Source: a virus (lineage: Duplodnaviria > Caudoviricetes). From it: a stretch of 64,000 nt of DNA. Below the pieces are notes generated by a model, which saw nothing but the letters and a program-made list of their open reading frames with translations, did not search any database and was not told the DNA's origin. A program made the position numbers and the translations under genes. Below are positions 6,665 through 49,308 of the stretch, piece by piece (within the stretch, counting starts at the first letter, position 1; every line of letters begins with the position of its first letter). Location: positions 1-64,000 of the IMG/VR virus record IMGVR_UViG_3300020576_004709; one strand, given 5' to 3'.

Positions 6665-6696
6665 GGGACACCATTCCTTTGAGTGAGGGAGTTGAT

Positions 6697-8642: not shown

Positions 8643-8644
8643 GA

Positions 8645-18982: not shown

Positions 18983-18983
18983 T

Positions 18984-19047
18984 TGGTTGGCCGAATGGTT
19001 AGGGTTCTCAGCCAAAAGAACGCCCTAGCCAAAAAACTTGCCAGCCA
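18984..19047 (+). ncRNA. Y RNA 3 (canonical Y-like fold)
   Basis: Terminal helix TGGTTGGC[C]GA/TTGCCAGCCA with bulged C, inner 9-bp stem TGGTTAGGG/CCCTAGCCA. Confidence 0.78.
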
Positions 19048-19054
19048 TTTTTCG

Positions 19055-19093
19055 GCCCGGTCGATCTCCTTGGAGGTCGGCCGGGCTTTTTTT
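19055..19093 (+). terminator. intrinsic terminator between the Y RNAs and Ro60
   Basis: GCCCGGTCGATCTCC-TT-GGAGGTCGGCCGGGC-TTTTTTT. Confidence 0.85.
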
Positions 19094-19117
19094 GTGCCCG
19101 TCACAGAGGGAACGTAC

Positions 19118-20713
19118 ATGCGAATCGCCGAACACGTCTCGCCGAAGGCCACCCCGCAGACGGAGCCGATCCCGCACAAGCCGATGGTCCAGAACTCGGC
19201 CGGCGGCTACTCGTTCGCCGTGGACGATTGGGCGCGGCTCGATCGCTTCCTCGTCCTCGGCAGCGACGGGGGCACCTACTACGCGACCGAGCGGGCCTTG
19301 ACCGTCGAGAACGCGAAGTCCGTCGTCGCGTGCGCCAAGGCCGACGCCGCCGAAGCGGTTCGCAGGATCGTCGCCGTCTCGGATGCCGGCCGCGCCCCGA
19401 AGAACGACTACGCGGTATTCGCGCTCGCCCTCGTCGCGGCCCACGCGGACGGGCCGGGGAAGTCCGCGGCATACTCGGCCGTGCCGAAGGTCTGCCGCAT
19501 CGGGACGCACCTGTTCCAGTTCGCGTCGGCCTCGAACGCGCTTCGCGGTTGGGGCAAGGGCCTCCGCGCGGCCATCGGGAACTGGTACGCATCGCAGGAG
19601 CCGAAGAACTTCGCTTTCCAGGCGATGAAGTACCAGCAGCGGGACGGGTGGAGCCACCGCGACTTGCTCCGGCTATCGCACCAGAAGTTCGAGAACGCGG
19701 ATTCGAACGCCGTCGCGCGCTGGGCGGTGAAGGGGTGGGAATCCGTCGGCGAGCAGCCGCACGAGAACCCTAACCTCGCGCCAATTTGGGCCTTCGAGCG
19801 GGCGAAGCTAACCGAATCGGTCCCGGAAATCGTGAAGCTCATTTCCGAATACCGGTTGCCGCGCGAGTGCGTCCCGACGAAGTTCCTGACCGAGCCGGCG
19901 GTGTGGGAAGCGCTCCTCGATCACATGAACATGACGGCGCTCATCCGCAACTTGGCCACGATGACGAAAGTCGGACTGGTCAAGCCCATGTCGAACGCGC
20001 TCGTCCAGGTCGTCGGGAAACTCGGCGACATCGACGGAATCAAGAAGGCCCGCGTCCACCCGCTCGCGCTGTTGGTCGCCCTCGTGACCTACGCCTCGGG
20101 CCGCAGCGTCCGGGGCAGCGCCGAATGGAAGCCGGTCCAGCAGGTTTCGGACGCGCTCGACCGCGCGTTCTACCGCTCCTTCGAGGCCGTGGAGCCGACC
20201 GGCAAGCGGTTCCTGCTCGGGGTGGACGTCTCCGGCTCGATGGGAAGCAACGAAATCGCTGGCATGGCCGGGATGACGCCGAGGGTCGCCGCCGCCGCGA
20301 TGGCGCTCGTGACGGCCTCCACCGAGAAGCTGTATCACGTCATGGGCTTCTCGAACCAGTTCGTCCCGCTAAACGTCAGCCCGCAGATGCGCATGGACAC
20401 GGTCGTGCAGAACATCAGCGGACTCCCGTTCCAGGCGACCGATTGCGGCCTGCCGATGGTCTACGCGATGCAGAACAAGATCCCGGTCGATACCTTCATC
20501 GTTTACACCGACAACGAGACCTACGCCGGTCCGATTCACCCGAAGCAGGCGATCGACCGCTACCGCCAGGCGACCGGCATTCCGGCGAAGCTCGTCGTCG
20601 TGGGCATGGCCTCGAACGGCTTCACGATCGCAGACCCGTCGGACGCCGGTATGATGGACGTCGTCGGCTTCGACACCGCAGCGCCGGCTGTCATCGCCGA
20701 CTTCTCCTGCTGA
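19118..20713 (+). CDS. rsr: Ro60/TROVE-domain RNA-binding protein (Rsr homolog)
   Basis: NSAGGYSF.VDDW.RL.RFL.LGS.GGTYY, GWG..LR.AI..WY, KYQQRDGWSHRDLLRLSH, LPRE.VP, M.ALIRNL, ARVHP, VWA part LLGVDVSGSM...FIVYTDNETY...TIADP.D.GM.D..GFD; AGAGGGA upstream. Confidence 0.97.
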   Translation: MRIAEHVSPKATPQTEPIPHKPMVQNSAGGYSFAVDDWARLDRFLVLGSDGGTYYATERALTVENAKSVVACAKADAAEAVRRIVAVSDAGRAPKNDYAVFALALVAAHADGPGKSAAYSAVPKVCRIGTHLFQFASASNALRGWGKGLRAAIGNWYASQEPKNFAFQAMKYQQRDGWSHRDLLRLSHQKFENADSNAVARWAVKGWESVGEQPHENPNLAPIWAFERAKLTESVPEIVKLISEYRLPRECVPTKFLTEPAVWEALLDHMNMTALIRNLATMTKVGLVKPMSNALVQVVGKLGDIDGIKKARVHPLALLVALVTYASGRSVRGSAEWKPVQQVSDALDRAFYRSFEAVEPTGKRFLLGVDVSGSMGSNEIAGMAGMTPRVAAAAMALVTASTEKLYHVMGFSNQFVPLNVSPQMRMDTVVQNISGLPFQATDCGLPMVYAMQNKIPVDTFIVYTDNETYAGPIHPKQAIDRYRQATGIPAKLVVVGMASNGFTIADPSDAGMMDVVGFDTAAPAVIADFSC

Positions 20714-27136: not shown

Positions 27137-28786
27137 CTACGTCGAACGCGGGACCGACGGCAGCAACCAGACGGACACCGGGTTCCCGGCGAGCGACCAC
27201 GTCCCCGAGACGACGTAATCGGGGACGAACAGCGGTATGAGAGCGTGCAACTCGGCCGGGCCAGCGACCAGCGAGACGGCCGCCGTTCGAACCGAACCGG
27301 AGAAAATCGCCGAGGCCGCGAGGGAAGCGCCGCCCGAGACGAGGACAACCGCCGCGGTAAACGACACGTTCGAGGTCGTCACCGCCGCCGCGAGCACGGC
27401 CGGCGGTGCGGCCAGCGCGACGGAGGCCGAGTAGACGGGCTTGGCGAAGCTCGCGATCGACGCCAGGCTCGCGGGACCGGCCGCCAGCGCCGCCGAGGCG
27501 GTGTAGGCCGGCTTGTTGAAATCCACCAACGCGGCGAACGTGGCCGGGCCGACGGTGAGGGTCGCGACCGCCGCGTAAGTCGGCTTGGCGAACGTTGCGG
27601 CCGCGCTCAGGGTCGCCCCGGCCGCGTTCAGGGACACCGCCGCCGAGTACACCGGCTTCGAGAACGTGGCGGCCGCCGCCAGCGCCGCCGGGCCGCAGGT
27701 GAACGAGGCCGCAGCGGTGAACGATGGCTTCGTAAACGTGCTGGACGCCGCGAGGACGGCGGGGGCGGCCGCGAGCGAGGCGACCGCGCTGTACGTCGGC
27801 TTCGTGAAGGTCGCGGACGCGGCGAAGGCGATCGACCCGGCGGCGAACGTCGCCGAGGCCGTGTACGAGGGCTTGGTGAACTTCGAGGTCGCGGCCAGCG
27901 CCGCGTGGCCGGCCAGGAGCGCGGCCGATGACGTGTAGCTCGGTTTCGTGAACGTCGCCGAGGCCGCGAGAGCCGCCTTGCCCGCCGTGAGTCCGACGGT
28001 TGCCGTGAAAACGGTGTTGGGCGCCTTCGTCGATCGCTTCGGCGGGTGAGGAGTGACGAACGCAAAAGGCGACCGCGCCCAAGCCTCCATCTGCCCCCAG
28101 GAGAGCGAGCCGTGCAGCACGGCGGCCATGTACACCGGGCCGCACCACTGGCGGGAAGTATCGAACGAATCGACCCCGATGTACCAATCGCTGATGGTCG
28201 GGGTCGACCATGTCTGATTCGTCGAATACCGCTTGCCGTTCATCCAGATTCGGACGTCGCCGTTCGGTGCCTGAGTGCCCGCCAACGCGATGACTTTCTC
28301 GCGGTCCGGCGTTAGCTGAGTGTCCTGCGCCCACCCGCCCCATCCCTTCGTCGAAATCGTCAGCGTCGCCGATCCGAACGTCCACATGAGGCCGTTCAGA
28401 CCGTCGGACCGGGTCATGATGAGACACCGGTTGCTGCTGGTTCCCCCGGCGGTGGGATAGCGGAAGAGGCCGAGGAAGCTGATGCCACGGGAATACACCG
28501 TGCGCCGAAGGCCCGTGCAGTTCGCGTAGTTTCCGCTCGTCGTGTTCAGGTCGAGACAGGGGATTCCGTCGGGCGAACCGTTCCACTTCGCCCGGCTGGA
28601 TTCCGTGGCGTGCATCGTGATCGGAGTAGAGACACCGCTAACCAAATCCGTGATCCGACCGCCGGCCCCCTCGTTGAACAGCCAGCAGGCCGAAACGAGG
28701 TTCCCGACCGGGTTCAACCGGTTGATGACCGCCATTCCTCGCGGCGGCTTCGTTCGCCCACCGGCGGGAAGACGCGGCGTAATCAT
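27137..28786 (-). CDS. LamG/concanavalin-like domain plus Ala-rich repeat region (tail fibre-like)
   Basis: LVSACWLFNEGAGG...DLVSG, W..GR...LAGT...RIWMNG...IG....W.G.VY.AAV; about ten 24-aa FTKPSY-type repeats. Confidence 0.75.
   Translation of the reverse strand: MITPRLPAGGRTKPPRGMAVINRLNPVGNLVSACWLFNEGAGGRITDLVSGVSTPITMHATESSRAKWNGSPDGIPCLDLNTTSGNYANCTGLRRTVYSRGISFLGLFRYPTAGGTSSNRCLIMTRSDGLNGLMWTFGSATLTISTKGWGGWAQDTQLTPDREKVIALAGTQAPNGDVRIWMNGKRYSTNQTWSTPTISDWYIGVDSFDTSRQWCGPVYMAAVLHGSLSWGQMEAWARSPFAFVTPHPPKRSTKAPNTVFTATVGLTAGKAALAASATFTKPSYTSSAALLAGHAALAATSKFTKPSYTASATFAAGSIAFAASATFTKPTYSAVASLAAAPAVLAASSTFTKPSFTAAASFTCGPAALAAAATFSKPVYSAAVSLNAAGATLSAAATFAKPTYAAVATLTVGPATFAALVDFNKPAYTASAALAAGPASLASIASFAKPVYSASVALAAPPAVLAAAVTTSNVSFTAAVVLVSGGASLAASAIFSGSVRTAAVSLVAGPAELHALIPLFVPDYVVSGTWSLAGNPVSVWLLPSVPRST
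27270..28000 (-). repeat. 72-bp/24-aa degenerate tandem repeats
   Basis: FTKPSY, FTKPSY, FTKPTY, FTKPSF, FSKPVY, FAKPTY, FNKPAY, FAKPVY spaced 24 aa apart. Confidence 0.85.
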
Positions 28787-29400
28787 GTAATGGTGTCGGA
28801 ATCGTAGGTTTGGGCGAGGCAGTGAAAGACGAGGGATTGGCCGCTGTTGTTGACCGGCGTGATTTCGTAGACGTCGCCGCCGGGCAACCAGATCGGAGCG
28901 CCGACGTCCGCTTGGTTCGTGACGCGGTCCCCGCTGTTGTGGGTGACGAGAAAGTTCCGATCGGTCGCGATGGTCGCGCTCGTCAGGTCGATAACCTTCA
29001 CGAACTCGACGCGGTTCGCGCTCGTGTCGTCGGAGTGCAGGCAGGCCCACTGGTCGGCGGCGTAGCCGGTGCCGGAGGCCAGGACGACAGTATTCGTTCC
29101 CGACGTCCCGCCGCTGGAAACCGTCGTCGAGTTGGCCGCGACGATCGACGACACGAAATCGAAGGCGGAATTCGGGAACTGGAACGATGCGTTTTGATTG
29201 TGCGACCGGCGAATCGCGATGTACCCCGAGCGAGTCAGGGCAGTCGCGGCACGCCGGCCGATCATGGGGTAGAGAAACGCCCCGAACTTCGTCTTCAAGT
29301 CGAGCGTTTGAAGGGTGCCGAGCGTGAGTCCCGACGCGAGAACTAACGGCGCGATAACCGTGCTGAAAGTCGGAGAGGTTGGAGTGACCACGTTCGGCAT
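28783..29400 (-). CDS. virion structural protein (hypothetical)
   Basis: Thr/Ser/Gly-rich beta composition within the tail region. Confidence 0.6.
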   Translation of the reverse strand: MPNVVTPTSPTFSTVIAPLVLASGLTLGTLQTLDLKTKFGAFLYPMIGRRAATALTRSGYIAIRRSHNQNASFQFPNSAFDFVSSIVAANSTTVSSGGTSGTNTVVLASGTGYAADQWACLHSDDTSANRVEFVKVIDLTSATIATDRNFLVTHNSGDRVTNQADVGAPIWLPGGDVYEITPVNNSGQSLVFHCLAQTYDSDTIT

Positions 29401-31388: not shown

Positions 31389-32072
31389 TCATACTTGGAT
31401 TCGGTAGTTGCCGGGCGGTCCGGGGTTCGCCGACTTGTAGGCGGCCGTCATGTCGCGCTGGCCGCTCAGGTGGAAATCGGAGAAACCCCAGGTGTAAACG
31501 TAGAAGACTTCATCCGGTTCATTCGCTCCGATCTTCCGGGGATTGCATTTGAGGTTCATTTTTGCCCAGGAATCCGCCGCCGCGTCGTGGCCGTGCGAAG
31601 TGTCCGAGTACCGGCCGAACATGGATGACAGCTTGTAGGCGCTCGCGTGGTGCATGACGCCCTTGCCGTCGAGAACGCGATCTTGGCCGTTCTGGTGGAA
31701 CCAGACCATGCCGGGATTCCAGTATTCGAATCCTTCCAGGTGCTTCGCGCTCGACTTCATCCGGTGGGGCAACGAACGATCGTCGTCTTCCCACATCATG
31801 CCGATTTCCGCGCCGCGGTGCCGCGCGAGGGCGATCATGATGTTGCATTTCACGCCGAGCGACGTCGCCCGCTCGCCCATGTTGACGCACCAAACATTCG
31901 GATGGCGGCAGGTCAGGACGTGTCCGGGCGCATCGTTCGCGACGATCAGGATTCGGCGGTCGGCCGGGTAGTCCTGATCCAAGAAGTCCCGGACGGCGTC
32001 CTTGATAAGCTCGGGCTGGCGCGACGCGCGGCCGAACGTCGGCATCAGGGCGGCGATCATGGGCGGCGTCAT
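31389..32072 (-). CDS. GT-A (family 2-like) glycosyltransferase
   Basis: AALMPTFGR...AVRDFL.QDYP...LIVAND...SLG.K.N......MWEDDD.SLP.R. Confidence 0.85.
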   Translation of the reverse strand: MTPPMIAALMPTFGRASRQPELIKDAVRDFLDQDYPADRRILIVANDAPGHVLTCRHPNVWCVNMGERATSLGVKCNIMIALARHRGAEIGMMWEDDDRSLPHRMKSSAKHLEGFEYWNPGMVWFHQNGQDRVLDGKGVMHHASAYKLSSMFGRYSDTSHGHDAAADSWAKMNLKCNPRKIGANEPDEVFYVYTWGFSDFHLSGQRDMTAAYKSANPGPPGNYRIQV

Positions 32073-32803: not shown

Positions 32804-32941
32804 TCACCGGGCGAAGAAGAAATGGTAGATCGCCATGCCCAGCGCGACGGCCAAGACGATCAGGAAGATCAGCAGGAACAGGCAGCGGCGCAGGTCGCGT
32901 TCCAACGCGCGGCCGAAGTCGATGAAGGTAACGCGGCTCAT
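32804..32941 (-). CDS. small single-TM protein (45 aa), below the ORF-track cut-off
   Basis: MSRVTFIDFGRALERDLRRCLFLLIFLIVLAVALGMAIYHFFFAR*; ATG overlaps the upstream TGA. Confidence 0.65.
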   Translation of the reverse strand: MSRVTFIDFGRALERDLRRCLFLLIFLIVLAVALGMAIYHFFFAR

Positions 32942-33258
32942 TTCAATTCCTTCGCGGCGAAGTTCCGGCAAAGTTCTTGAAGCTCCGGATGCTTGGGGTT
33001 GACCCAGCGGTCGTCCCCGACGTCGCAGACCTTGATCTTGTCAGCATACGCGGCCGGGATTTGCTTCGCAAACTTGCCTTCCATGACGACGACGACTTCC
33101 GCCCAGCGGCAAAGCGTGTCCATCAGTTCCGGGCCGGCCGTCGACCAGCCGATGCAGACCGCGTCGCGCTCGAATTCTTCCTTCAGAACCCAAGCCATCG
33201 CCGCGCTACGACTGTTCCCCCGCAGGCAGACCGCCAGAATCCGCTGCGGGGACATCAC
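32938..33258 (-). CDS. low-molecular-weight phosphatase/ArsC-fold protein
   Basis: ILAVCLRGNSRS (CX5RS P-loop), WAEVVVVME, D+G.D. Confidence 0.8.
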   Translation of the reverse strand: MMSPQRILAVCLRGNSRSAAMAWVLKEEFERDAVCIGWSTAGPELMDTLCRWAEVVVVMEGKFAKQIPAAYADKIKVCDVGDDRWVNPKHPELQELCRNFAAKELK

Positions 33259-35183
33259 TGTTTTTGGACGGGGTTCCCGTCTTCATCCTTTTTCCACGTC
33301 CCGATGGGGCATTCCTCGGCCGCCCAACTGGCCTTCTTCTGGACCGGACAGCCGCATTTGCCGCAGACATCGGCGAAGCGCTGCGGGCAGACCAGGCAAA
33401 GCTCGATCCGCCGATTGTATTCGCCCTCGGACGTCGGCGCGGCCCCGTTCGCCGCGTGCCGGACGACGGCCCGGAAGAAGCCCAACGCCTGGCGGGCGAT
33501 GTTCGGCGGCGCGGTCTTGTCCCGGTCGTCGCGGCTGATGACCGTCAGGCCGTTGTTGTTGCGGTCCCGGCGGATCATCGTCCATTCGGGATGTTCGACG
33601 AGCCAGCGGCGGATCGCCGGCATCACGCCGGGCTTGTCGCCGTACAGTTCCCCGAAAATCTCGGTGTCGTGGAAGACGATGTAGCGCGAGACCTTCGGCG
33701 CGTGCAGGCTCAGTTCCGCGTACACCCGCTCGGCCGTGTGCGGGTCGGTGTCGACGAGGAGCACGTCGCAATCCTCGGCCTCGCCCTTCGTCGTGTCGGC
33801 CGCCCGCATTTCGTACCGCGTGCCGGGCAAGTCGCGCGCGACGTACTTCGCGAGCTTCCGGGCCTTCGCCGTGTTGACGAGGTCGTAAGTCACCAGGCTC
33901 GCCGGCTTGCCCGCGAGCAGGGCCGTCGTGCTGACGCCGAATCGCGTGCCCAACTCGACGACGCGGGCCGTCGGTCCGACCGTCTCGACGAGCGCCCGCA
34001 GCGTGGGCAAATGCTCGTTGATGTCGGACGGCTCGGCGCAGACGCGGGCGAACTCGACTTCGAGCACGTCGCCCTCGGCGAGCGGGGCATCGGCGGCCTT
34101 CGCGTTCTCCGCGCACGGCGTGTTCGGTTGGCACGGCGTCTTGGCCGGTCCCGCGAATACCGGGAACGCGACCGGCGGCGGCTGGACGGCCGGCGCGTGC
34201 GGGTCGCCGCGGAGCGCGGCTTCGGTCCACGAAGCCGGCACGAGGCCCGTCCCGATGAAGTGTTCCCGCAAGCGAGTCGGATCGAGGCCGAGTTCCGCGT
34301 GCCCGAGTTCGTAGTTGCGGTACTTCTGCCAGAGCGTGATGGGGTACTGGACGCCGCCGGGCCGCGCGAAGCGGTGCGACCACAGCATTCCCGAGACGCA
34401 CCAGACCTTCCGCCCGGCCTTGCGAAACTTCTCGTGGATGTACCATTCCTCGCCGCCGAATCCCGTGAAGCTGGGGTTGAACCCCAGGAACGACGACTTG
34501 CGGCACGCGAAGAGGCCCATGCCCTGCGCCGGGATCTCGAACCACTTCGCGACGGGCTTCGGCAATTCCGGCTGGTGCTTCGGCACCTTGTAGACCTGTT
34601 GCGTCTCCGGGTGGATACGCTCCTCGAAGTCGGTCGACGTCTCCCAAAGCATCTTGGGGAAGGCGTTGAAATCCCGCTGCCACCGCCCCCACATTTGCGA
34701 CGGGCGGCGCTCGGTCCGCTTCTCCTTCGTGTTCGGGTCCGTGATCTCGACGTCGTCGATCGGCCAGACGTCTTCGAAGTGGGTCGCCAGTTCGACGAAG
34801 TTGTCCATCAGCAGCGGGCCGTGAACCAGATCCTCGCTCTTCGGGTTCGCGTGGTAGAACTCGGCCAGCGATTCGAGAGCGCCGGCCGCGAGCATGATAT
34901 GGGAGTCCATGCAGACGACGTGTTCGAACCGCGCCTGCTCGAAAACCTGCTGCTTGGCGAGCGCCGGCCCCTTCGGTTCGGGGAACCGGACGTACCGCAC
35001 GCCCGGGCACTGGTTGCAGAAGTCCCGCGTCGTGCGGCCTTGATCGGAATCGGGGTTGTTGTCGATGACGATAATCTCGGCAATCCGCCGGCTGAAATAC
35101 AGCCGCAGCGCCTGCAACGTCATCCAGACCCCGTTGAAGTCGTCGTAAACCGGCATACCGACGCTGAAACGCAAACCGGACAT
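33255..35183 (-). CDS. three-domain protein: GT-A glycosyltransferase + class I SAM methyltransferase + C-terminal Cys-rich (DUF6171-like) domain
   Basis: SVGMPVYDD, VCMDSH, GLFACRK, GFGGEE, WSHRF; VVELGTRFGVST, D.LLVDT.H...L..HAPKV..YIVFHDT; R..LCL.CP...C.KCGC...K..W..E.CP.G.W. Confidence 0.88.
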   Translation of the reverse strand: MSGLRFSVGMPVYDDFNGVWMTLQALRLYFSRRIAEIIVIDNNPDSDQGRTTRDFCNQCPGVRYVRFPEPKGPALAKQQVFEQARFEHVVCMDSHIMLAAGALESLAEFYHANPKSEDLVHGPLLMDNFVELATHFEDVWPIDDVEITDPNTKEKRTERRPSQMWGRWQRDFNAFPKMLWETSTDFEERIHPETQQVYKVPKHQPELPKPVAKWFEIPAQGMGLFACRKSSFLGFNPSFTGFGGEEWYIHEKFRKAGRKVWCVSGMLWSHRFARPGGVQYPITLWQKYRNYELGHAELGLDPTRLREHFIGTGLVPASWTEAALRGDPHAPAVQPPPVAFPVFAGPAKTPCQPNTPCAENAKAADAPLAEGDVLEVEFARVCAEPSDINEHLPTLRALVETVGPTARVVELGTRFGVSTTALLAGKPASLVTYDLVNTAKARKLAKYVARDLPGTRYEMRAADTTKGEAEDCDVLLVDTDPHTAERVYAELSLHAPKVSRYIVFHDTEIFGELYGDKPGVMPAIRRWLVEHPEWTMIRRDRNNNGLTVISRDDRDKTAPPNIARQALGFFRAVVRHAANGAAPTSEGEYNRRIELCLVCPQRFADVCGKCGCPVQKKASWAAEECPIGTWKKDEDGNPVQKQ

Positions 35184-35246
35184 GGGGCACTTCTCCATTG
35201 GTAAAACGGTCACAATTCACGGCGGATCTTCGCCGCCTCCGGGTTC

Positions 35247-37703
35247 TTAGGTCACCATTCCGCATCCGATTTGACACAGGATGCTGCTGGCCCACGGACC
35301 GAGCCAGCCGCCGGGGTTGTCCGCGTAGAACCCGCACGACAGGCCGGAGCCAGTTCCGGGGCAGTAGTAGCCGGGACCGCTCCCGTCGGCACCGCACCCG
35401 CTGCCGGCGCAATTGGCCTCGCTGATGTACGGGCCGGTGCAACCGCCGGGATTACCCGATTCGAAATACTCGTTGCAATTCCCATCGCAACACCACCATT
35501 CCGTAACCGGCGCATCGGTCGTGGTCGTGGGCGGCGGTGGCGTCGTCGGCGTGGTAGTCGTCGTCGTGGAAGACGGCGGTGAGGTCGTGGTTGTCGTCGT
35601 GGTGGTCGTGCTCGTCGGCGGGGGCGTCGTCGTGCTCGTGCAGGGGCTTGCGTCGCACTCGCCTTCGGTATCGAACGGGCCGGCCAGGACGACGTAGTAG
35701 TAGCCGTTCCCGCCGCAGGAATGGTTGTAGGTGTTTCCGACGACCGTCATGGACGGGAACCGCTGGAAGCAGAACGTCGATCCAATTCCGTCCGGCGAGC
35801 AGTCCGAGAATCCCCACAGGGTTGTCACGCGAACGCAATACCACTTCATCGCCTCGGTTGTCGTCGTGGTGGTCGTGCTCGTTGTCGTCGTCGTGCTGGT
35901 GGTCGTCGTGCTCGTCGTCGTCGAGGTCGTCGTCGTTGGGGGCGGGGTGGTGGTCGTCGTCCGGTCCGTACAAGGCGTCTCGTCGATCGAGCAATCGTTC
36001 ACGCCGGCATAGACCGGCTCGTAGCAATCGCAATTCCCCTCGCAGTTCTCGGAGCCGAGGAAGATCCATTCGGACGTGAACGCGCTCCAACGGAACCGGC
36101 ACTTGCCGCTGCAAGTCGGGGTCGTGGTGGTTGTCGTGGGCGGTGGGGGTGTCGTCGGCGTGCAGGGGTTGGGCGCCGCAGTGGTCGTGGTCGGGCAGTT
36201 GTCTTCGACCGGGCACCCCGTCACGGCCATGTTTCCGCAGACCGGATTCGCCGGCGGCACGGTGGGCGCTCGGCACGGTCCGCACGTCTTGCAGTCCGGG
36301 AAGTTCGTGAAGCAACCGCCGCCGATGTACAGCCAGCCAATTTCCTCGTCGATCCAGACCCAACGGCAGGAGCCGTGGCAGAACTTCGGCGGTGCCGGGG
36401 TGGTCGTTGTCGTGGTGCAATCGAACGGCACGTCGTAACAGACGGAACCGCTGCCGGACGGCGGGGGCGGACACCGGCAGTTGCTACCAGGCGTCCCCGC
36501 GCAGTTGTTCCGCTTGACGATGAACCCGAATCCGGGGATCCAGGTGTAGACGCACCCCGAGCAGTCCGGCGGGGGCGTCGTGGTCGGGCACGGCGTGGTG
36601 GTCGTCAGCGGGTCGGGGGTCGTGCTCGTAGTGGTCGTGCTGGTGGTCGTCGTCGTGAAGGCCGGGCAGGGCGTGGTGGTCGTCGTGGTGCGCGGCCGCT
36701 CGCAGTAGGTCTTAATCGTCGCGCACCCGTCGTCCGGTTGGGGGCAGACGGTCGGGTAGGCCGGCACGCAGCCGGGCGAGCAGCAGATTTCCTTGAGCTT
36801 CCAGATTCCCAACGCGAAATCGAATTCCCACGACGAGAGGCCGCCGCAGGGTGCCGGCGTCGTGCTCGTGGTAGTCGTGGTCGGGGGCGGGCCGGAATCG
36901 CGGATGCCGACGAAGACGCGGCGATCGTACTCGACGCCGTGCTCCTCGACGGGGATCAAGCTGCCGATGACGGGTGCCCGGCCGTAGACGTCCCGGAACC
37001 AAACGAGGATGTCCGATTCGAGCCAGAGGTCGCCGTAGGTGTAGTAGTAGACCAGCTTGGCCGAATAGAACCTCTGCCCGTCGGTGTGAGGGTACGGCGT
37101 CGTGGTCGTGCTCGTCGTGCTGGTGGGCGCGGGGGTTGTCGTTGTGGTCGTGGTCGTCGTTGGCGCTTCGGTCGTGGTCGGAACGCAGGTGGTCGAAGTG
37201 GGTGCCGGCGTGGTGGTCGGAACTGCGGTTGTCGTGGTGGTCGTCGGTCCCGGCCGGTCGCTCAGGATCTTGACGTAGGCTTGCATTCCCACCCGGACGA
37301 CGGGAACCGTGTCCATGTCGTCCGGCTCGCCGTCGATCTTGAAGCCGAGACGCCCCTTGCCGAGTTGGAAGCTGCCGGCGACCGGACCCCAAATCTCGCC
37401 GATCTTCGGTTGGCCATCCGCCGGGTTGAAAGCCGCGCGGATCGGGGACGAGTACGAGGCCCACCCAGCGCCGGTGAAACCCCGGACCGCGTCGGCCGGC
37501 GGGATCGAGTACGGCCCGGCGATGTAGCAGCCGGGTTCCCCGTCGGCGGTCGGCTTCCCGACGACCTTGCGGCCCTCGGCGTCGGGAAACGCAGTGTTGG
37601 CAACGCACCCGCCCGGCGGTATGGTATCGCTTGTGGCGTTGACCATTGGAATGGGATTACAACTGAGGGTGTAATCCTGACTCGACGGTCTGAGCACAAC
37701 CAT
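35247..37703 (-). CDS. mucin-like Thr/Pro- and Cys-rich protein (probable tail fibre/adhesin); start uncertain (37724 TTG, 37703 or 37646 ATG)
   Basis: N-terminal tail-type domain followed by many poly-Thr/Pro tracts alternating with small C.G.C.(W/F).W...W......C...C.C..P modules. Confidence 0.8.
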   Translation of the reverse strand: MVVLRPSSQDYTLSCNPIPMVNATSDTIPPGGCVANTAFPDAEGRKVVGKPTADGEPGCYIAGPYSIPPADAVRGFTGAGWASYSSPIRAAFNPADGQPKIGEIWGPVAGSFQLGKGRLGFKIDGEPDDMDTVPVVRVGMQAYVKILSDRPGPTTTTTTAVPTTTPAPTSTTCVPTTTEAPTTTTTTTTTPAPTSTTSTTTTPYPHTDGQRFYSAKLVYYYTYGDLWLESDILVWFRDVYGRAPVIGSLIPVEEHGVEYDRRVFVGIRDSGPPPTTTTTSTTPAPCGGLSSWEFDFALGIWKLKEICCSPGCVPAYPTVCPQPDDGCATIKTYCERPRTTTTTTPCPAFTTTTTSTTTTSTTPDPLTTTTPCPTTTPPPDCSGCVYTWIPGFGFIVKRNNCAGTPGSNCRCPPPPSGSGSVCYDVPFDCTTTTTTPAPPKFCHGSCRWVWIDEEIGWLYIGGGCFTNFPDCKTCGPCRAPTVPPANPVCGNMAVTGCPVEDNCPTTTTAAPNPCTPTTPPPPTTTTTTPTCSGKCRFRWSAFTSEWIFLGSENCEGNCDCYEPVYAGVNDCSIDETPCTDRTTTTTPPPTTTTSTTTSTTTTSTTTTTSTTTTTTTEAMKWYCVRVTTLWGFSDCSPDGIGSTFCFQRFPSMTVVGNTYNHSCGGNGYYYVVLAGPFDTEGECDASPCTSTTTPPPTSTTTTTTTTTSPPSSTTTTTTPTTPPPPTTTTDAPVTEWWCCDGNCNEYFESGNPGGCTGPYISEANCAGSGCGADGSGPGYYCPGTGSGLSCGFYADNPGGWLGPWASSILCQIGCGMVT
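37654..37677. promoter_or_regulatory. perfect 8-8-8 palindrome (operator or recombination site candidate)
   Basis: GGATTACA-ACTGAGGG-TGTAATCC at a divergent gene junction. Confidence 0.5.
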
Positions 37704-37718
37704 CCCCCCGTGTGAACC

Positions 37719-38456
37719 ATGCAAGCAGTGTACGGGGCATTTTTTCTACCGGCGAATTGCTGCTCGATCACGCGACAGATCGAATCCGAGACGACCGACG
37801 TCGGCAAACCCTACCGCGAAACCCACTCCCTGCACTGCCGCGTGACCCTCGTCTCGGCTTACTCGGCCCCGCTCGATCGTCAACGCGACCTGACGTTCCA
37901 GGAGGCCCGCATCCGCGCGGCGACGTCGGAACCCGGCCTCGACTTCCAGTTCTTCGACGACGGCGGACTCCGCTCCGATCTCTGCCTGCTCAACGCGGGG
38001 TGCGAGGAAAAGGTGCGGCGGGTCCACTGGAGTAACCCGGAGGGCGGCAACTCCGAACTGGCCGGCAAGCGAACACTCGAATTCGTCATGCAGGCCGTCT
38101 ACCCGAGCTTCGGGGCGTTCGGCACGATCCTCTCCCTCCAAGAGACGTACACCGTGGACGGCGACGGCTCGCCGTACATCGTGATGCACGAGTTGCAGGA
38201 CGGAATCGTCGAACAGGTCACGCGGGCCGCGACCATCAGCCGCGCCTACCAGACCGGGTCGGCGGTCGGCTACAAGACGTGGCCCAACCTCGGCCCGTAC
38301 AACGGCTTCCCCAAGCAGAAGTTCCCGAAGGGCTTTCGCGGGTTCCGATCGCAGGTGTCCCGCGAACTGCCGAAGCGCCGGGGCGAGGGATTCAACAGCC
38401 ACTTCGGGATGCACTGGTCGTACTACTCCGAAGGCGCGACACCCTACAAGGTCTGA
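37719..38456 (+). CDS. putative tail protein on the opposite strand
   Basis: Protein-like ORF with high GC3 in this frame; beta-rich (QETYTVDGDG.P, Y.Q.GSAVG, W.Y..E). Confidence 0.7.
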   Translation: MQAVYGAFFLPANCCSITRQIESETTDVGKPYRETHSLHCRVTLVSAYSAPLDRQRDLTFQEARIRAATSEPGLDFQFFDDGGLRSDLCLLNAGCEEKVRRVHWSNPEGGNSELAGKRTLEFVMQAVYPSFGAFGTILSLQETYTVDGDGSPYIVMHELQDGIVEQVTRAATISRAYQTGSAVGYKTWPNLGPYNGFPKQKFPKGFRGFRSQVSRELPKRRGEGFNSHFGMHWSYYSEGATPYKV

Positions 38457-38471
38457 GAGAGGTAACGAGCC

Positions 38472-39698
38472 ATGCCGTCCGAAAAACTGTACTACGCACG
38501 CGCCGGCGTCCGAAAGCGGATTCAGACGCTCACCATCAATTCGGCGACCGCCACGAACATCGCGGGCGCGGCGATCGGTCCCCGGACCGAACTCTACACC
38601 ATCGGCACCGGCATGACGACCGCGCTCGTGGCCGCCGCGCTCGCCGCGCAACTCCAAGCCTCGCTCGCCCCGGAGTTCCAAGAACTCAGCTATTCCCCCA
38701 GCTCGAACGTCATCACGATCACGAGCATCGACACCGGGGTCGATTTCGTGGTAACGGCCGCCGGCACCGGCGGCGTCGTATCCGCCGCGACCGTGCAGAC
38801 GGCGACCGGCGGCATGGATTGGGCCAACGTCGACAATTGGGGCGGGGCGCTGCCGGTCAACGGCGATTCGATCGTCGTCGACATCCCGGATACGCCGATC
38901 ACGATGAACCTCGACGCGCTCGCCGGCGTGGACATCGCGACGATGACGGTTCGCAACCGCAGCAACCGCGGCGCGGGCCTCACCAACTTCCGCCGGACGA
39001 ACGGGGCGATCTACATCGAGTACCGCGGCCGCTACGTCCAGCTCAAGACCCTGACCCGGCTCGTCGTCGAAGGGGACGGTCCCGGCCCGGACGTCCTGCA
39101 CGTCCAACTGATGACCGGCGGGAACACGACTTGCGACATCAGTTCCAACAACAGTTCGGACAACGACGAGGTCGCGCCGATCCAACTGCTGCTGAAATCG
39201 ACGGGGAACAAGCTCAACCTGAACAAGGGCTACGCCTCGATTCCGAAGGACGAGATCCTCGGCCTGCTCGGGGTGTGCGCGACGGTGAACGTGGGCCGCG
39301 AGGGGGACAACGAGGAAGCGCCGTTCGCGAACGTGGACGGGACCGTGTCGGCGGTCAACAACTATTCCGGCCAGACGCGGGCCTCGTCGAACATCACGCT
39401 CTTCATGGGTCGGGACTCGGTCGACCACCTGCAAACGGCCGGCAACCTGACCGTCAGCGGGTCGGCCGGCAACGTCGATTACCGGCCGGCGGGGACGATC
39501 ACGTTCAACATCACCGAGAACTGCACGCTCTACTTGAACCGATCGACCGCGACGAAGACGCTCGGCTCGCTCTGTTCGGGACTCAACGGCGGTGCCGTCA
39601 TCGACCCGAACGGCACGATGGCCGGCTCGTTCACCCTCGATCAAAAGTCGCTGCAGCGATCGCGGTTGAAGGACGGGACCGGCGTCACGGTGACGTAG
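38472..39698 (+). CDS. putative tail/fibre protein on the opposite strand
   Basis: GAGAGG upstream; DW.N.DNW.GA.PV.GD.IV followed by a beta-helix-like Gly/Asn/Thr-rich region. Confidence 0.8.
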   Translation: MPSEKLYYARAGVRKRIQTLTINSATATNIAGAAIGPRTELYTIGTGMTTALVAAALAAQLQASLAPEFQELSYSPSSNVITITSIDTGVDFVVTAAGTGGVVSAATVQTATGGMDWANVDNWGGALPVNGDSIVVDIPDTPITMNLDALAGVDIATMTVRNRSNRGAGLTNFRRTNGAIYIEYRGRYVQLKTLTRLVVEGDGPGPDVLHVQLMTGGNTTCDISSNNSSDNDEVAPIQLLLKSTGNKLNLNKGYASIPKDEILGLLGVCATVNVGREGDNEEAPFANVDGTVSAVNNYSGQTRASSNITLFMGRDSVDHLQTAGNLTVSGSAGNVDYRPAGTITFNITENCTLYLNRSTATKTLGSLCSGLNGGAVIDPNGTMAGSFTLDQKSLQRSRLKDGTGVTVT

Positions 39699-39699
39699 G

Positions 39700-39742
39700 A
39701 AAAAGGAAACGGACCGACTGCCCCTAGTCGGTCCGTCCCTTT
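39700..39742. terminator. bidirectional intrinsic terminator
   Basis: AAAAAGGAAACGGACCGACT-GCCCCT-AGTCGGTCCGTCCCTTT between convergent genes. Confidence 0.8.
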
Positions 39743-41606: not shown

Positions 41607-43895
41607 TCACCCGTTTCGCTGGATTCGACCCTGCGCCATCGCCGCGAAGACGTTGCCGATCAGGGCCGGCTTCGAGAACTCGCGGTTCTGCCGTGCGGCC
41701 TCCGCGTCCGGCCGGATGGCCTCGCGGAAACGCCTGGTGTCGTAATTCGGCATGTAGTGATCGTGCTCGACGTTTCGGCTCAGGGTCGAACCCATCGCCT
41801 CGCGGCCGAAGTCGATCGTCATTTGACCGATTGCCCCGTCGAGCTTGACGACCGGCACGCCCTTGTAGTGGATCGTCGTCCCGCCTTCGAGGACGATCCG
41901 GTTCAGGTGCTCGTCGAGGTACTTGTCGGCGGCCGCCGTCGCGTTGTCGTACTCGTCGGCGATCGACTCCGTGAACAGGTGCCGGCGCTTGGCGTTGTCC
42001 ACCCCGTACCGCTGGACCCACGTTCGAACCACGTCGTCGTGCTCGAACCATTTGATTTGGGGATCCTTGTCCCAAATGTACGCCTTCGCGTCGTTGTCCT
42101 TCCGTGCCAGCTTCTTCGGGGACTGGCGCTTGTCCCCGATCTCGCCCTTCTCGTCGGCGAACTTCACCCAGCGCCGGTACCGGAGAATCTCGTGCGTCTC
42201 CCGGTCGCGGAGGTAGGCAGAGAACTCGAACACGATGCGGGGGATCTGGACCTTGAGCGAGTTGCCGGCCGGCACGACTTCGAGCACGGGCGAGGCGAAC
42301 GTCACGACGTAGGAGCCGGGATCGAACGTGAAGGGAACTTCGATCCGCTGCTTGAACTCGGTGTTGAGTTGCGCGGAGTCCAGCTTCCGGTGGACCGGCG
42401 ACGAATGTCGGTGGTAGATCGCCCCGTAGCACTCGCTGGACCGGTCCCGGCTCCACCCGTCGTAATAGTCGGGGACGTCCGCGATGATGTCGCCGCTGCC
42501 GCCGCGAATCCGGTTTGGGTCGCGCTCGGTCGGCACCACCTGCTCGACGCGGGAGTTGAACGGGACCATCGAATGCAGGTCGAGAACGTGGCCGTAGCGC
42601 CGGACGTAGAGCGTCTGCTGCGGGTCGGTCGGCCCCCGCGACGGATCGAGGAGCGTGACGCGGTACATCTTGTAAACGCCGGCCTGCGCCAGTTCCATCG
42701 CCTTGTTGAAGGTGAGTTGGTCAGTCGCGTGGACGCCGGGGAAGATCGGCGGGTTGCAGAACTCCCAAGCGGTCTGCACGCCGACCGTCGTCACGTTTAC
42801 GGTGAAAGTCGCGAGGTTGTCGCCGCGGCGAACGTCCGGGGTATGGCCGTTCGTCCGGCCGGCGATGTAGAGCGCCGGCCCGGCTTCCACTCTGGCCGCC
42901 ACGCGACTCCCGACGGACGAGTTCGCGTTGATGGCCGCCGCCATGTCGTTGAGAACTTGGGTCGCATCGGTGGTTCCGACGACGGAGAACGGCCATCCGT
43001 CCACGAGGAGGCGGAAGTTCTCGCCCGTCAAGAACGGGATGTCGCAGAAAACCTGCACTTCGCCGGGCCTCGGCGGGTTCACCGGCGCGTAGCTGAGGAT
43101 GTCGATCGTGTTGAGTTGCGAACCGTAGTCCGGCGCGACGGCGTCGAGGACGACGCGGAATTGCCACCGGATCGGGGCACCCCTCACCCCGACGCCGGCG
43201 GGGATCGGCGGGAGGTTGATCGCCCCGCCGCCCGAATCGACGTGGTCGGTCGGAAGCTCGGCCCCGACCGAACGCTTCTCGATTCGCACCCGCCGCTCGA
43301 TGTTGCACCAGATCGGCACCATGTAGAACTGGTCGCACAGCCGCGCGAGGGCCTCGCGGGTCGGGGTGCCGTTCCACTCGATGCGGGGGTTCAACTCGGG
43401 CTTGGTGCTCTTGACTCCCTCGCCGGCTCCGGGGAACTCGTTCGGCGGGACGTCGCCCTCCTTCACCCCCTCGGGCATCAGCGAGACGTCGAAGCCCTGC
43501 TCGCCGAGGTTCAGGAGCGCGATCTTAACCAGTTCTCGCGGCGTCTTGACGCGGCCGGGTAAGAGGTTCTGGTGCGTGTCCTGCTGGTTGTAGTCGCCGT
43601 CGATGACGGCGTTCTCCCAGCGCCAGCGGTGGTCTTTGAGGATGATCTGCCACGAGTTTCCCGCGCGGCTGAAATTGGGCAGGATGCGTTCGACCCGGCA
43701 GTCGGGGACGGTGTATTCCCGCTCGCCGTCGCGGAACACGAAATCGCCGTAGCGGCGCAGGGCGAGCGGTTCAACCTTGACCACGACGGAAATCTCGTCC
43801 GGCTCGACGCCCTGGTTGTAGGTGTAGTTCGCGGTATCGACGCCTTCGAGGCCGGGGTAGGAGACGGAACAGTTCTGCCGTTTGTAGAAGGCCAT
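41607..43895 (-). CDS. tail tip/hub-like protein (762 aa)
   Basis: F.DGE....VPDC.V...I.L.D.RWRW...I.G.YN...K.PREL...L..LGE; located after the chaperones. Confidence 0.6.
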   Translation of the reverse strand: MAFYKRQNCSVSYPGLEGVDTANYTYNQGVEPDEISVVVKVEPLALRRYGDFVFRDGEREYTVPDCRVERILPNFSRAGNSWQIILKDHRWRWENAVIDGDYNQQDTHQNLLPGRVKTPRELVKIALLNLGEQGFDVSLMPEGVKEGDVPPNEFPGAGEGVKSTKPELNPRIEWNGTPTREALARLCDQFYMVPIWCNIERRVRIEKRSVGAELPTDHVDSGGGAINLPPIPAGVGVRGAPIRWQFRVVLDAVAPDYGSQLNTIDILSYAPVNPPRPGEVQVFCDIPFLTGENFRLLVDGWPFSVVGTTDATQVLNDMAAAINANSSVGSRVAARVEAGPALYIAGRTNGHTPDVRRGDNLATFTVNVTTVGVQTAWEFCNPPIFPGVHATDQLTFNKAMELAQAGVYKMYRVTLLDPSRGPTDPQQTLYVRRYGHVLDLHSMVPFNSRVEQVVPTERDPNRIRGGSGDIIADVPDYYDGWSRDRSSECYGAIYHRHSSPVHRKLDSAQLNTEFKQRIEVPFTFDPGSYVVTFASPVLEVVPAGNSLKVQIPRIVFEFSAYLRDRETHEILRYRRWVKFADEKGEIGDKRQSPKKLARKDNDAKAYIWDKDPQIKWFEHDDVVRTWVQRYGVDNAKRRHLFTESIADEYDNATAAADKYLDEHLNRIVLEGGTTIHYKGVPVVKLDGAIGQMTIDFGREAMGSTLSRNVEHDHYMPNYDTRRFREAIRPDAEAARQNREFSKPALIGNVFAAMAQGRIQRNG

Positions 43896-44783: not shown

Positions 44784-45743
44784 TTATTCGCCGGCCGCGC
44801 GGATCTTCGCGCTGACCTGGGTGGACGGCCCGGCCGTTGTATCGTAACCGACCGCGAGATTCAAATCCCACGGGATCGACGCCTTGCCCGGCACGCCCGG
44901 CTCGCGGAGTCCCTCGGCCACGGTGTACGGCGTGTCGAAGATGAGCGTGCGGCGGGTGGACGTCGCCCCGTAGTCGAGCGTGACGAGCGCCGCGACGACC
45001 GCCGCGTTGCGGTACAGGTCGAAGATCGCCGGCCCGACCTTCCACGGAAACCGCACGGCGAGGCGGATCGTCCGCGCGGCCGACGGGAACGCCGTCGGCG
45101 TGACGCTGTTCATGTACTGCGTGTCGATCGCGTACTGGAACGAGAGCGAGAAGTTGTAGATGTCGTAAGCGGTGCCGCCGACGGTGATTTGAAGCTGCGG
45201 GAAGATGAACGGCTTCCCGGCGGTCGGAATGACGAGTGCCGGCCAAGTGTACGGGTTGACGAGCGCGTCGCGGTCGGTGCCGACGGACTGGACCGACATC
45301 CGCAGCGGCTGGCGCTCGCTCGCCGTGAAGTTCGCGGACACCACCCGCTGCTGTCGGTACTTGTGGAGGTTCGAGTTGATGTAGGCGAAGACGTCGAAGC
45401 ACGGCCGCGTCTCGGCCATCAGGACCGTCTTGAGGCCGGTCGTCGGGCTTCCGAGCGCCCCGCCGAGGATGCGGGGAAGCCAGCGTTCGAGGTCGCCTCC
45501 GGTCGGCCGGCAGTTGAAACCGCCCCGCGCGTTGCGGCTCATCTCGACGTACCGCTCGGTCGGCATCGCCTCCGTGCCCCGGATGCCGCTCGTGTCCTGG
45601 TTCTCGATTTCGAGGGTGTAATCCTGGTCGTCGTATTCGAGTTGCTCCGTCGGATCGGTCGGCGCGGAAACGGTGTCGCTCGCGGCGAAGCCGAGTTTCG
45701 TGTTGACGCCCTGGGTCGTGCGTTCCGGGTTGCAGTTCGCCAT
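44784..45743 (-). CDS. tail tube protein
   Basis: Q..GIRGT...ERY...RN..GG...PT..DL..WLP.ILG; typical size and position. Confidence 0.75.
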   Translation of the reverse strand: MANCNPERTTQGVNTKLGFAASDTVSAPTDPTEQLEYDDQDYTLEIENQDTSGIRGTEAMPTERYVEMSRNARGGFNCRPTGGDLERWLPRILGGALGSPTTGLKTVLMAETRPCFDVFAYINSNLHKYRQQRVVSANFTASERQPLRMSVQSVGTDRDALVNPYTWPALVIPTAGKPFIFPQLQITVGGTAYDIYNFSLSFQYAIDTQYMNSVTPTAFPSAARTIRLAVRFPWKVGPAIFDLYRNAAVVAALVTLDYGATSTRRTLIFDTPYTVAEGLREPGVPGKASIPWDLNLAVGYDTTAGPSTQVSAKIRAAGE

Positions 45744-46479: not shown

Positions 46480-47124
46480 TCAATCTCCCTGCCAGATCCA
46501 CGCAAGGCACCGCGCCCGGACGTGGACGGTGACGATTTCGACCGTGGTTTTCGAGAACCCGACGAACCGGCGGGACGGCACTTCGACCCGCTTCGTCATG
46601 TAGAACTGCACTTCGAGCAACGTGAGCTGAATCCGCGTCGGCCGGATTCCCTCGGGAACCGGGCCGATCAAGACCCCGCTGACGCCGCCCTTGCGAATCA
46701 TCGGGATGAGGCGCCCGTCGAAGTTTCGCGGACTCTTCGCCCGCTTCGCCTCCACCGTGGCCGGGATGCACAGGAACTTCGCGTTCACCGGCACCACGAC
46801 CCCGCCGTAGTGCAACAGCCTGGCCCCGATCCGGTTCGTCCCGACCGTCAGCGACGTCGCGTTGGCCACCGCGACGATCGACGCCATCAGCCGGCCGGTA
46901 TCGCGGAGGGCCTCGCCGAGTTCGGCTTCGCCCGGCCGCTTGAACTTCAACCTCGGCCACGGATCGCCGTCCGGCGTCTTCTGCTCGACGAAGCACTGTT
47001 TCACGCCGGCCACCGCGACCGGCTCGCATTCCTTGAGGGCCTCGGCCATGACGTTGGCCATGCGGCCCCGGTCGGCCAGACGGCGACAGGCCCGCGCGAG
47101 TTGCTGGAACGTGAGGGCCGCCAT
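46480..47124 (-). CDS. phage virion morphogenesis / tail completion protein (Mu gpG-like)
   Basis: F.EQ.TPDG.PW..LK...L.DTGRL.ASI...VGTN...A...H.GG...P.R.F.G.S. Confidence 0.88.
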   Translation of the reverse strand: MAALTFQQLARACRRLADRGRMANVMAEALKECEPVAVAGVKQCFVEQKTPDGDPWPRLKFKRPGEAELGEALRDTGRLMASIVAVANATSLTVGTNRIGARLLHYGGVVVPVNAKFLCIPATVEAKRAKSPRNFDGRLIPMIRKGGVSGVLIGPVPEGIRPTRIQLTLLEVQFYMTKRVEVPSRRFVGFSKTTVEIVTVHVRARCLAWIWQGD

Positions 47125-48210: not shown

Positions 48211-49308
48211 TCACGTCCAAGTAATCGAGGCGTGGCCCTCGGGGTGAATCGGAGCCGGCCCGCCGTTGAACCCGACGTCGCCGATAACCTGCGGCGGCAT
48301 CAACCGGTACTGGACGAGGGTGTACATCCCGGACGAGATCGCGTTCTTGTTCGCGTACTCGTCCGTCCGGCTGTCGATGCCGCCGCCCGGCAGCGCCTCC
48401 TTCGCCATCGAGCGGGTGAACTGCCACTGGCCGAGCGGCTCGCCGTCCTTGCGCTTGCCCGCCCAAATGACGCGCCGGGTCGTCAACTGCCGCACCCAAT
48501 TCGCCGGGTCGCGGGAGAGCGCCTTCGTCGGGTAGTAACCGGCGTCGTAAAGCTCGATCTGCGGGAGATCGTAGCTGCCGAGAAGCTGGTTCACCTTCTT
48601 GAGGCCGTTGACCGTGTCCCCGCCGTCGATCCGAATCTTGTTGGAGATCTGGTCGATCTTGAGGAACTCCGCGAGCGAGAGTTCGTTCATGTACAGCTTC
48701 GATTCCGGTCCGAAGTTGGTCGACCGGCCGGCCTGGAGTTGGGCCTTCCACGTCAGCAGGTCGAAGATCGGCACCGCCGTCGCCGCCGTGCTCCAAGTGA
48801 TCGTCGGCACGAACTTCTGGCGGGTCGAGTAGTTCTCGATCGTGTCGCCGTAGGTCACGCTCCCGTCCGCCGAGCGGGCGATGAACGTCCCGTCGAGCAT
48901 GAGGCTGATGATGATGTCGCGGATCTCCACGACCGTCTGGCCGAGCAGGTTGCCCATGCCGAGCATGACGAGCGTCGAGATCCCCATCGGGTCGCTGGCC
49001 GTGCCCGGCTGGCGCTGTTCGAGCATCTGCTTCTCGGTCAGGACGAACCGAGACCCGAAGAGGCCGGGGTCCATCGAGAACCGCTTGTAGCCGGGGATCG
49101 GAGTGACCGTCGGCTCGCCGTCGAGTCCGCGCAGTTCCATCTTCCCGAACGGGTTTTCCTGTTGCTCCCAAATCACCGAGAATTCCTTCTGGTAGGTCGA
49201 AGGAAAGAGTTGGATGATCGGGTCGCTTTCCATCTCGGCCTGGAGGAGTTCCGCCGCGACGAGTTGCGTCGAGAAGCTCCGCGTCAGGTTCAGGGTTTCG
49301 GCCGGCAT
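48211..49308 (-). CDS. major capsid protein (Phage_cap_E/HK97-fold type)
   Basis: 365 aa, follows protease and decoration genes; E......L..G.F...G...W.T...A.P..DL..W. Confidence 0.85.
   Translation of the reverse strand: MPAETLNLTRSFSTQLVAAELLQAEMESDPIIQLFPSTYQKEFSVIWEQQENPFGKMELRGLDGEPTVTPIPGYKRFSMDPGLFGSRFVLTEKQMLEQRQPGTASDPMGISTLVMLGMGNLLGQTVVEIRDIIISLMLDGTFIARSADGSVTYGDTIENYSTRQKFVPTITWSTAATAVPIFDLLTWKAQLQAGRSTNFGPESKLYMNELSLAEFLKIDQISNKIRIDGGDTVNGLKKVNQLLGSYDLPQIELYDAGYYPTKALSRDPANWVRQLTTRRVIWAGKRKDGEPLGQWQFTRSMAKEALPGGGIDSRTDEYANKNAISSGMYTLVQYRLMPPQVIGDVGFNGGPAPIHPEGHASITWT

Follow-up and report, generated by a model that had tools for sequence, protein, structure and literature searches.

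A phage gene pair of a GT27-like glycosyltransferase and a Thr-tract protein: a candidate mucin-type O-glycosylation cassette

Mucin-type O-glycosylation, which is initiated by GT27 enzymes on clustered Thr and Ser residues, is treated as a eukaryotic trait. In Gram-positive bacteria, the glycans of serine-rich-repeat (SRR) adhesins are initiated by GtfA/B and then extended by dGT1/CgT and others. Among phages, the parts of the literature available to us describe virion glycosylation for mycobacteriophages only: Che8, Corndog and Myrna use their own glycosyltransferases (GTs) to glycosylate the C-termini of capsid and tail-tube proteins (PMC12363180, PMC12619734, PMC10877033, citing Freeman et al. 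2023). Here we describe a gene pair from the virus record IMGVR_UViG_3300020576_004709, a complete 73.8-kb virus with direct terminal repeats, of which 64 kb were analysed (the window). A gene for a protein rich in Thr tracts lies directly ahead of a gene for a GT that resembles the polypeptide N-acetylgalactosaminyltransferases (ppGalNAc-Ts) of family GT27, and the tracts are probably the substrate of this enzyme, as judged from the sequences and their relatives. Both phage self-glycosylation and mucin-type initiation are already known, and the cassette would be a variant of them. A full-text literature search found no paper on phages with GT27-type enzymes or with mucin-like Thr-rich proteins.

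The initial annotation had described an ~800-amino-acid (aa) protein of Thr tracts and Cys modules beside a GT-A enzyme, a description that is borne out by composition, by the tracts themselves and by the GC content at third codon positions (GC3). The features of this protein are as follows, with aa numbers for the tracts, modules and C-terminal domain taken from an 825-aa reading.

35247..37646, minus strand: poly-Thr/Cys-module protein, candidate glycosylation substrate (by composition, GC3 and tracts)
37248..37646, minus strand: N-terminal globular domain of ~133 aa without Thr tracts (by homology to proteins of the related loci L002 and L032)
35517..37247, minus strand: Thr/Pro tracts alternating with small Cys-rich or beta-rich modules (aa 160-736)
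36435..36563, minus strand: Cys/Trp module 1 (aa 388-430)
36267..36380, minus strand: Cys/Trp module 2 (aa 449-486)
36015..36113, minus strand: Cys/Trp module 3 (aa 538-570)
35250..35516, minus strand: C-terminal Cys/Gly-rich domain (aa 737-825), read from the sequence, with no family match

Read from TTG 37724 to the stop at 35247 on the minus strand, the open reading frame (ORF) encodes 825 aa with 20.2% Thr, 12.3% Pro, 10% Gly and 6.4% Cys. At third codon positions its GC content (GC3 0.84) resembles that of neighbouring phage genes, and the ORF is a real gene. The true start is likely ATG 37646, giving 799 aa, because the ESM Atlas record begins there and a close L032 homologue aligns from aa 29. 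The gene pair had been placed at 33255-37703; position 37703 is another in-frame ATG and a less likely start than 37646. The 825-aa reading holds ten tracts, each of at least eight T/S/P/A residues (for example aa 160-167, 187-210, 357-370, 589-623 and 696-736). Three Cys/Trp modules, beginning at aa 388, 449 and 538 and each with a Thr tract ahead of it, follow the pattern C-x2-3-C-x-[WY]-x-W ... W ... C ... C-x-C-x-x-P over ~35-45 aa; the module family comprises 22 copies in six proteins from six phage lineages. There are two more Cys-rich segments beyond these modules and a small beta-rich insert after the N-terminal domain, and a tandem-repeat scan returned short imperfect ACN-type repeats only. 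The protein has no transmembrane segments, and neither it nor its N- and C-terminal domains nor the Cys/Trp module matched a Pfam or PHROG family. An Atlas structure search of the Cys-module region reached a TM-score of at most 0.33 on a poor model (pLDDT, the predicted local distance difference test, of 0.49) and is meaningless.

Within the window, this is the sole Ser/Thr-tract ORF with coding-like GC3, so its juxtaposition with the GT does not reflect general genome composition. The same observation bears on the idea that the enzyme glycosylates other virion proteins such as capsid or tail tube, or a large number of proteins, rather than its neighbour in particular. Modification of capsid and tail-tube C-termini by phage-encoded GTs is on record (PMC12363180, PMC12619734), and the cassette lies within the structural arm of the genome. 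However, a tblastn search of the GT-methyltransferase protein against 50,697 deposited phage genomes, mycobacteriophages included, gave no match, and the window offers no other tract of the kind. Of the features of mycobacteriophage-type glycosylation, Ser/Thr-rich C-terminal tails on capsid or tail-tube subunits were not found among the window ORFs, and no homology of the GT to those of Che8/Corndog came out of the search of this phage collection. We regard glycosylation of other virion proteins, or of many proteins, as improbable. What the mycobacteriophages and the window phage would share is the use of the phage's own GTs on its own virion proteins, encoded with or near the structural genes; the target in the window phage would be a dedicated multi-tract mucin-like protein in place of capsid or tail-tube C-termini.

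The enzyme is encoded downstream, after a gap of 33 nucleotides (nt) between the poly-Thr stop and its own start that holds no terminator-like site. ORF 33255-35213 on the minus strand specifies 652 aa in three parts:

34179..35213, minus strand: ppGalNAc-T-like GT-A catalytic domain (aa 1-345 of the 652-aa protein)
33519..34031, minus strand: class-I S-adenosylmethionine (SAM) methyltransferase-like domain of the Methyltransf_24 / RMNT_CmcI type (aa ~395-565)
33294..33428, minus strand: Cys-rich C-terminal tail, DUF6171 / phrog_13558 (aa 596-640)

All four motifs attributed to the enzyme before, VCMDSH, GLFACRK, FGGEE and WSHRF, are present. In an alignment of 49 homologues the invariant positions are D51, D103-x-H105, G251/G253/E255/E256 of the FGGEE loop and W278-x-H280-R281-F282. 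An Asp-x-His motif (D103-S-H105) replaces the DxD motif and reads DSH or DCH in 12/12 related viral loci. The aligned C-terminal His, H280, we take to be the third metal ligand from what is known of GT27.

The closest structural matches of the GT-A domain are GT27 structures; members of that family include mouse GalNAc-T1 (8v9q), human GalNAc-T2 (2ffu), GalNAc-T7 (6iwq) and Toxoplasma GalNAc-T3 (8uhv). A profile of the C-terminal catalytic half found only GalNAc-T7 in the PDB (E 0.006), in an alignment that pairs the GGLF-like loop with PAMAGGLF, FGGEE with WGGENF and W-x-H-R-F with VGHIY. With the whole domain as profile, GalNAc-T10 (E 0.025) and GalNAc-T7 (E 0.043) were matched. The proposal of a ppGalNAc-T-like enzyme was therefore upheld by structure comparison and by a motif-by-motif alignment to GalNAc-T7. 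In its fold and active-site signature the enzyme resembles GT27, but the likeness in sequence is marginal, and it is not a demonstrable GT27 member. Compared with the eukaryotic ppGalNAc-Ts, to which it is ~15% identical, it is phage-encoded and lacks their type II membrane anchoring in the Golgi lumen: its maximum 19-residue Kyte-Doolittle mean is 1.35 and its N-terminus is not hydrophobic. Because there is neither signal anchor nor stem, the phage enzyme is predicted to be cytoplasmic. In place of the ricin-type lectin domain of ppGalNAc-Ts it has the methyltransferase-like domain and the Cys-rich tail; the Pfam matches C-terminal of the GT domain are Methyltransf_24 / RMNT_CmcI and DUF6171 only, with no ricin-type lectin domain among them.

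The N-terminal, nucleotide-binding half has a different likeness, namely to the inverting GT2 enzymes of PF00535 (SpsA, TarS, TarP). Glycos_transf_2 (PF00535) matches aa 17-125 only, at E 4.5e-12 and 46.7 bits against a cut-off of 23.3 (49.7 bits in the genome-wide search). This half resembles bacterial GT2 enzymes (TarP, E 8e-8); among PDB sequences, those of TarP and TarS match it best. The GT2 family is rich in cell-wall enzymes, and homologues of the phage enzyme are labelled 'involved in cell wall biosynthesis' in their sources. Such matches would suit a scenario in which a glycan of the host envelope, an S-layer or a lipid-linked sugar is the target of the GT and its partners, in lysogenic conversion or superinfection exclusion, while the Thr tracts are flexible linkers of a nearby fibre. 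We consider this scenario quite unlikely, since the protein lacks a membrane segment, no Gtr-like flippase accompanies it, structure comparison clearly favours GT27, fusions to the PqqD domain (see below) indicate peptide substrates, and the pairing with Thr tracts persists in lineages that otherwise share nothing.

To examine this pairing, lineages were sampled from viral contigs, from contigs obtained by exact-protein look-up and from genomes of the family of a Gemmataceae metagenome-assembled genome (MAG). A Ser/Thr-tract ORF lies no more than 2.2 kb upstream of the GT on the same strand in 13/17 sampled phage or prophage lineages. It is directly upstream (≤38 nt) in the window and in L002, L003, L004, L009-12, L013, L023, L029, L030 and L031, and 55 nt upstream in L032. 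L023 is a prophage in the Gemmataceae MAG, with the order tape measure, 282-aa protein, 813-aa poly-Thr protein, GT. In L024 and L028 the tract gene is found one to four genes ahead of the GT. L024, a Prosthecobacter contig, encodes at 6389-8855 a 355-aa protein with 48% Thr (TTTTTTVPP repeats), then a GT29-like protein, then the GT; in L028 the poly-Thr gene is followed by genes for a 2-oxoglutarate-dependent (2OG) oxygenase, a sulfotransferase and GT2 enzymes before the GT. As a separate observation, the L024 trio is strikingly like the animal mucin pathway, its GT29 being of the sialyltransferase family.

Counting as poly-Thr any ORF with at least two T4 runs, we found 17 of the 18 such ORFs in 395 kb of GT loci at the upstream position, compared to a single one in 146 kb of control loci that match the methyltransferase domain only. 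The GTs of 15 lineages are 33-68% identical in pairwise comparison. The N-terminal parts of their Thr-tract partners are unrelated, leaving the tract as the sole common feature: some partners are Cys-module fibres, that of L009 joins a Thr tail to a different globular domain, and that of L024 is almost pure repeat. The N-terminal domains of nine partner proteins gave nothing informative in Pfam or PHROGs. Because the partners have no domain in common except the tracts, the pairing is hard to explain otherwise than by an enzyme that needs the tract itself. The earlier proposal that the enzyme belongs with the adjacent Thr-rich protein is thereby strengthened, since the pairing is kept across lineages whose one common trait is the tract.

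No Ser/Thr-tract gene was found upstream of the GT in L005, L006-8/P0102, L026 and L027. In the low-GC lineage L006-8 and P0102, the GT gene instead stands between dUTPase/DUF1599 genes and genes for an N6_N4 DNA methyltransferase and PolB. This setting recalls hypermodification of phage DNA with sugars, and phage DNA glycosyltransferases are common (PMC12619734). As an account of the window phage we find it highly improbable: there and in most sampled lineages the GT sits in the tail block beside a Thr-rich protein, its fold is nearest to the peptide-acting GT27 enzymes, and some family members carry PqqD fusions.

The GT family is large, with 776 homologues by word-seeded search and at least 1312 clusters at E ≤ 1e-30 by exhaustive search. 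PqqD, a peptide-binding domain, is fused to some members (P0144, P0150, P0106), which points to a peptide substrate; the combination of PqqD and GT looks like a recognition element in the style of ribosomally synthesised and post-translationally modified peptides (RiPPs) tied to O-glycosylation. In other members, GT25, GT10, GT29, sulfotransferase or additional GT2 domains are joined to the GT or encoded next to it. A fusion of substrate and enzyme was not seen, with at least two Thr runs in 0/143 representative family members. In L041 (15317-15955, minus strand) and L043 (2678-3304, plus strand), both cellular genomes from the family of the Gemmataceae MAG, a protein with a PqqD domain, a hydrophobic transmembrane segment and a Pro/Thr-repeat tail is encoded upstream of a GT27-like enzyme. 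Carbohydrate-binding domains occur as well: the GT homologue at L013:10013-12028 has a C-terminal NPCBM/NEW2 domain (E 2.4e-13), and homologues P0007 and P0069 have an F5/8 type C domain. By analogy, these domains may be counterparts of the ppGalNAc-T lectin domain, and the fused or neighbouring glycan enzymes and carbohydrate-binding domains of the family fit a modular glycan-building system.

Where the poly-Thr protein resides bears on a further alternative. Its gene belongs to a candidate glycosylation cassette located where the block of tail genes has its distal end, and the tail-module protein encoded nearby is

41607..43895, minus strand: 762-aa tail-module protein, downstream of the tail tube and two small ORFs

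In L002 and L032, a homologue of this protein (tblastn 24-26% over ~780 aa, E 1e-49 to 1e-61) is encoded directly upstream of the poly-Thr gene, and in L023 and L031 the poly-Thr gene comes after the tape measure and one more gene. The N-terminal domain, presumed to serve as an anchor, has counterparts by homology in the N-terminal part of the poly-Thr proteins of L002 (29% over 121 aa, E 3e-7) and L032. An ESM Atlas feature search placed it near 'phage cement protein' clusters (score 0.92-0.93); this cement or decoration identity was left unconfirmed by Pfam (E up to 1), PHROGs and a stand-alone homologue search. The Atlas lead would agree with a pairing that is real but in which the poly-Thr protein forms a fibre that decorates the head or is released as a mucin-like product outside the virion, and the cellular partners are indeed small proteins of PqqD, transmembrane segment and Pro/Thr tail and not fibres. 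Given the unconfirmed lead and the gene order in these four lineages, we hold this to be unlikely and favour a glycosylated tail fibre or stalk.

Two more genes close to the pair may take part in the pathway:

31389..32072, minus strand: second glycosyltransferase, 227 aa, GT2-like with GT-A fold (invariant E-D-D-D at aa 95-98)
32938..33258, minus strand: 106-aa protein with a C-x5-R-S P-loop like that of low-molecular-weight phosphatases/ArsC (homologue in L031)

The first of these had been named as a second GT2, and it is indeed a GT2-like GT-A enzyme, by its GT-A fold and an acidic DxD-type motif, that co-occurs with the cassette; it accompanies the cassette in four further loci. CgT (5hea) is its top structural match, tied with others. 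The 106-aa protein has no Pfam match. A homologue (43% identity, motif retained) occupies the same position in L031, and the protein is a possible member of the cassette.

The fused SAM methyltransferase of the initial annotation corresponds to a class-I O-methyltransferase-like domain. Its profile matches the O-methyltransferase 4pca in the PDB (E 0.0026), an E-L-G-x-x-x-G-x-S motif is visible, and Pfam matches were obtained with homologues of the domain (PF13578 in 6/14, PF04989 in 3/14). The phage domain itself matches Methyltransf_24 over aa 419-517 with 24.4 bits, under the cut-off of 26.3. With phmmer, the methyltransferase half and the second GT gave no match or noise only against PDB sequences. 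The domain is probably a sugar O-methyltransferase, which is the weakest of our assignments, and the Cys-rich tail is possibly a zinc ribbon. Because no sugar-nucleotide epimerase (PF01370) was found in the phage genome, the host would supply the sugar donors.

Taken together, we propose that the genes at the distal tail end form a phage-encoded cassette for O-glycosylation of protein in the cytoplasm. The soluble, metal-dependent GT, whose metal site (Asp-x-His plus the C-terminal His) and sugar-binding FGGEE loop are like those of ppGalNAc-Ts, would transfer the first sugar from a host nucleotide sugar to clustered Thr residues. The 227-aa GT2-like enzyme would then extend the glycan, and the fused CmcI-type methyltransferase would O-methylate a sugar. 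Glycosylated in this manner, the tracts would stiffen the spacers between the Cys/Trp modules, so that a stiff mucin-like fibre or stalk would stand on the virion. The folds, the motifs, the conserved pairing of the genes and the lack of membrane anchors are seen in the data; we infer that sugar goes to Thr, and likewise which donor and anomeric linkage are used, in what order the steps run, what is methylated and where on the virion the protein sits. Of these points, the sequence of steps and the methyltransferase function are less firm than the Thr tracts as substrate. The cassette would resemble the SRR adhesin systems in having a GT cluster beside a repetitive Ser/Thr-rich fibre, cytoplasmic O-glycosylation and stepwise extension. 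It differs from them in its start and in its surroundings: SRR adhesins are initiated by a GT-B pair and exported by accessory Sec, whereas the phage has a GT27-like GT-A enzyme as putative initiator and no export genes.

Several points weigh against this model. The likeness to GT27 is marginal at the sequence level (~15% identity; E 0.006-0.04), Pfam places the GT domain in the inverting GT2 family, and the methyltransferase match is below the Pfam cut-off. Four sampled lineages have no Thr-tract neighbour, and the context in L006-8/P0102 means that part of the GT family may act on another substrate. It is gene position that would place the poly-Thr protein on the virion, and how a protein so rich in Cys would fold if made in the cytoplasm is a further difficulty. 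In some bacterial proteins, moreover, poly-Thr linkers are common as unglycosylated spacers.

A broader reading is tentative and, in our view, rather doubtful. According to it, tailed phages and some bacteria (the Gemmataceae MAG, Prosthecobacter sp.) would carry a large undescribed GT27-like clade that makes true mucin-type glycoproteins, their sugars O-linked to clustered Thr, in the cytoplasm; GT2, GT25, GT10, GT29, sulfotransferase and O-methyltransferase domains would extend the glycans in modular fashion. This clade would be a prokaryotic and viral sister or source of the eukaryotic initiators, and in the window phage a new Cys/Trp module would make up a glycosylated bottle-brush tail fibre with methyl caps.

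A GT family of at least 1312 clusters that has the fold and motifs of GT27 and is regularly encoded beside Thr-tract proteins would mean that many phage particles, and some bacteria, carry mucin-like glycoproteins; a concrete cloneable pair of enzyme and substrate would be at hand, and the origin of the eukaryotic enzymes would be open to phylogenetic study. Coating fibres with glycans would bear on host recognition, the stability of particles, surface adhesion and antibody recognition, and the soluble enzymes could serve as tools for making O-glycoproteins in bacteria.

The wider window is that of a tailed phage. Pfam matched Phage_tube_2 (44784-45743) and Phage_tail_S (46480-47124), gave a weak capsid-E match (48211-49308) and recovered RecT and YqaJ recombination genes. 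Almost all structural genes of the window are on the minus strand. A Planctomycetota host is only suggested by the GC content of ~64% and the nearest cassette relatives; the major capsid protein of the window had no match in the Gemmataceae and Prosthecobacter genomes that bear related cassettes.

Two plus-strand genes (245 aa and 408 aa) at 37719-39698 break up the minus-strand tail block. The 408-aa gene has a homologue in L002 that shares the strand of the tail genes and precedes the 762-aa homologue there, an arrangement that suggests an inversion in the window. Promoter and terminator scans did not rise above shuffled sequence except for a strong hairpin at 39706-39739, located between convergent genes. 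A 637-aa ORF at 27137-29050 on the minus strand has about ten tandem ~22-aa Ala-rich repeats (A-A-x-A-T-F-x-K-P-x-Y) and no family match, and is possibly another fibre. The phage also encodes a Ro60 protein (18983-20713, plus strand; TROVE E 1.9e-40, Ro60 von Willebrand factor A (vWA) domain E 5.4e-65) on the strand opposite to most genes. Upstream of the head genes, a single minus-strand ORF of 3502 aa with normal codon bias spans 52612-63120.

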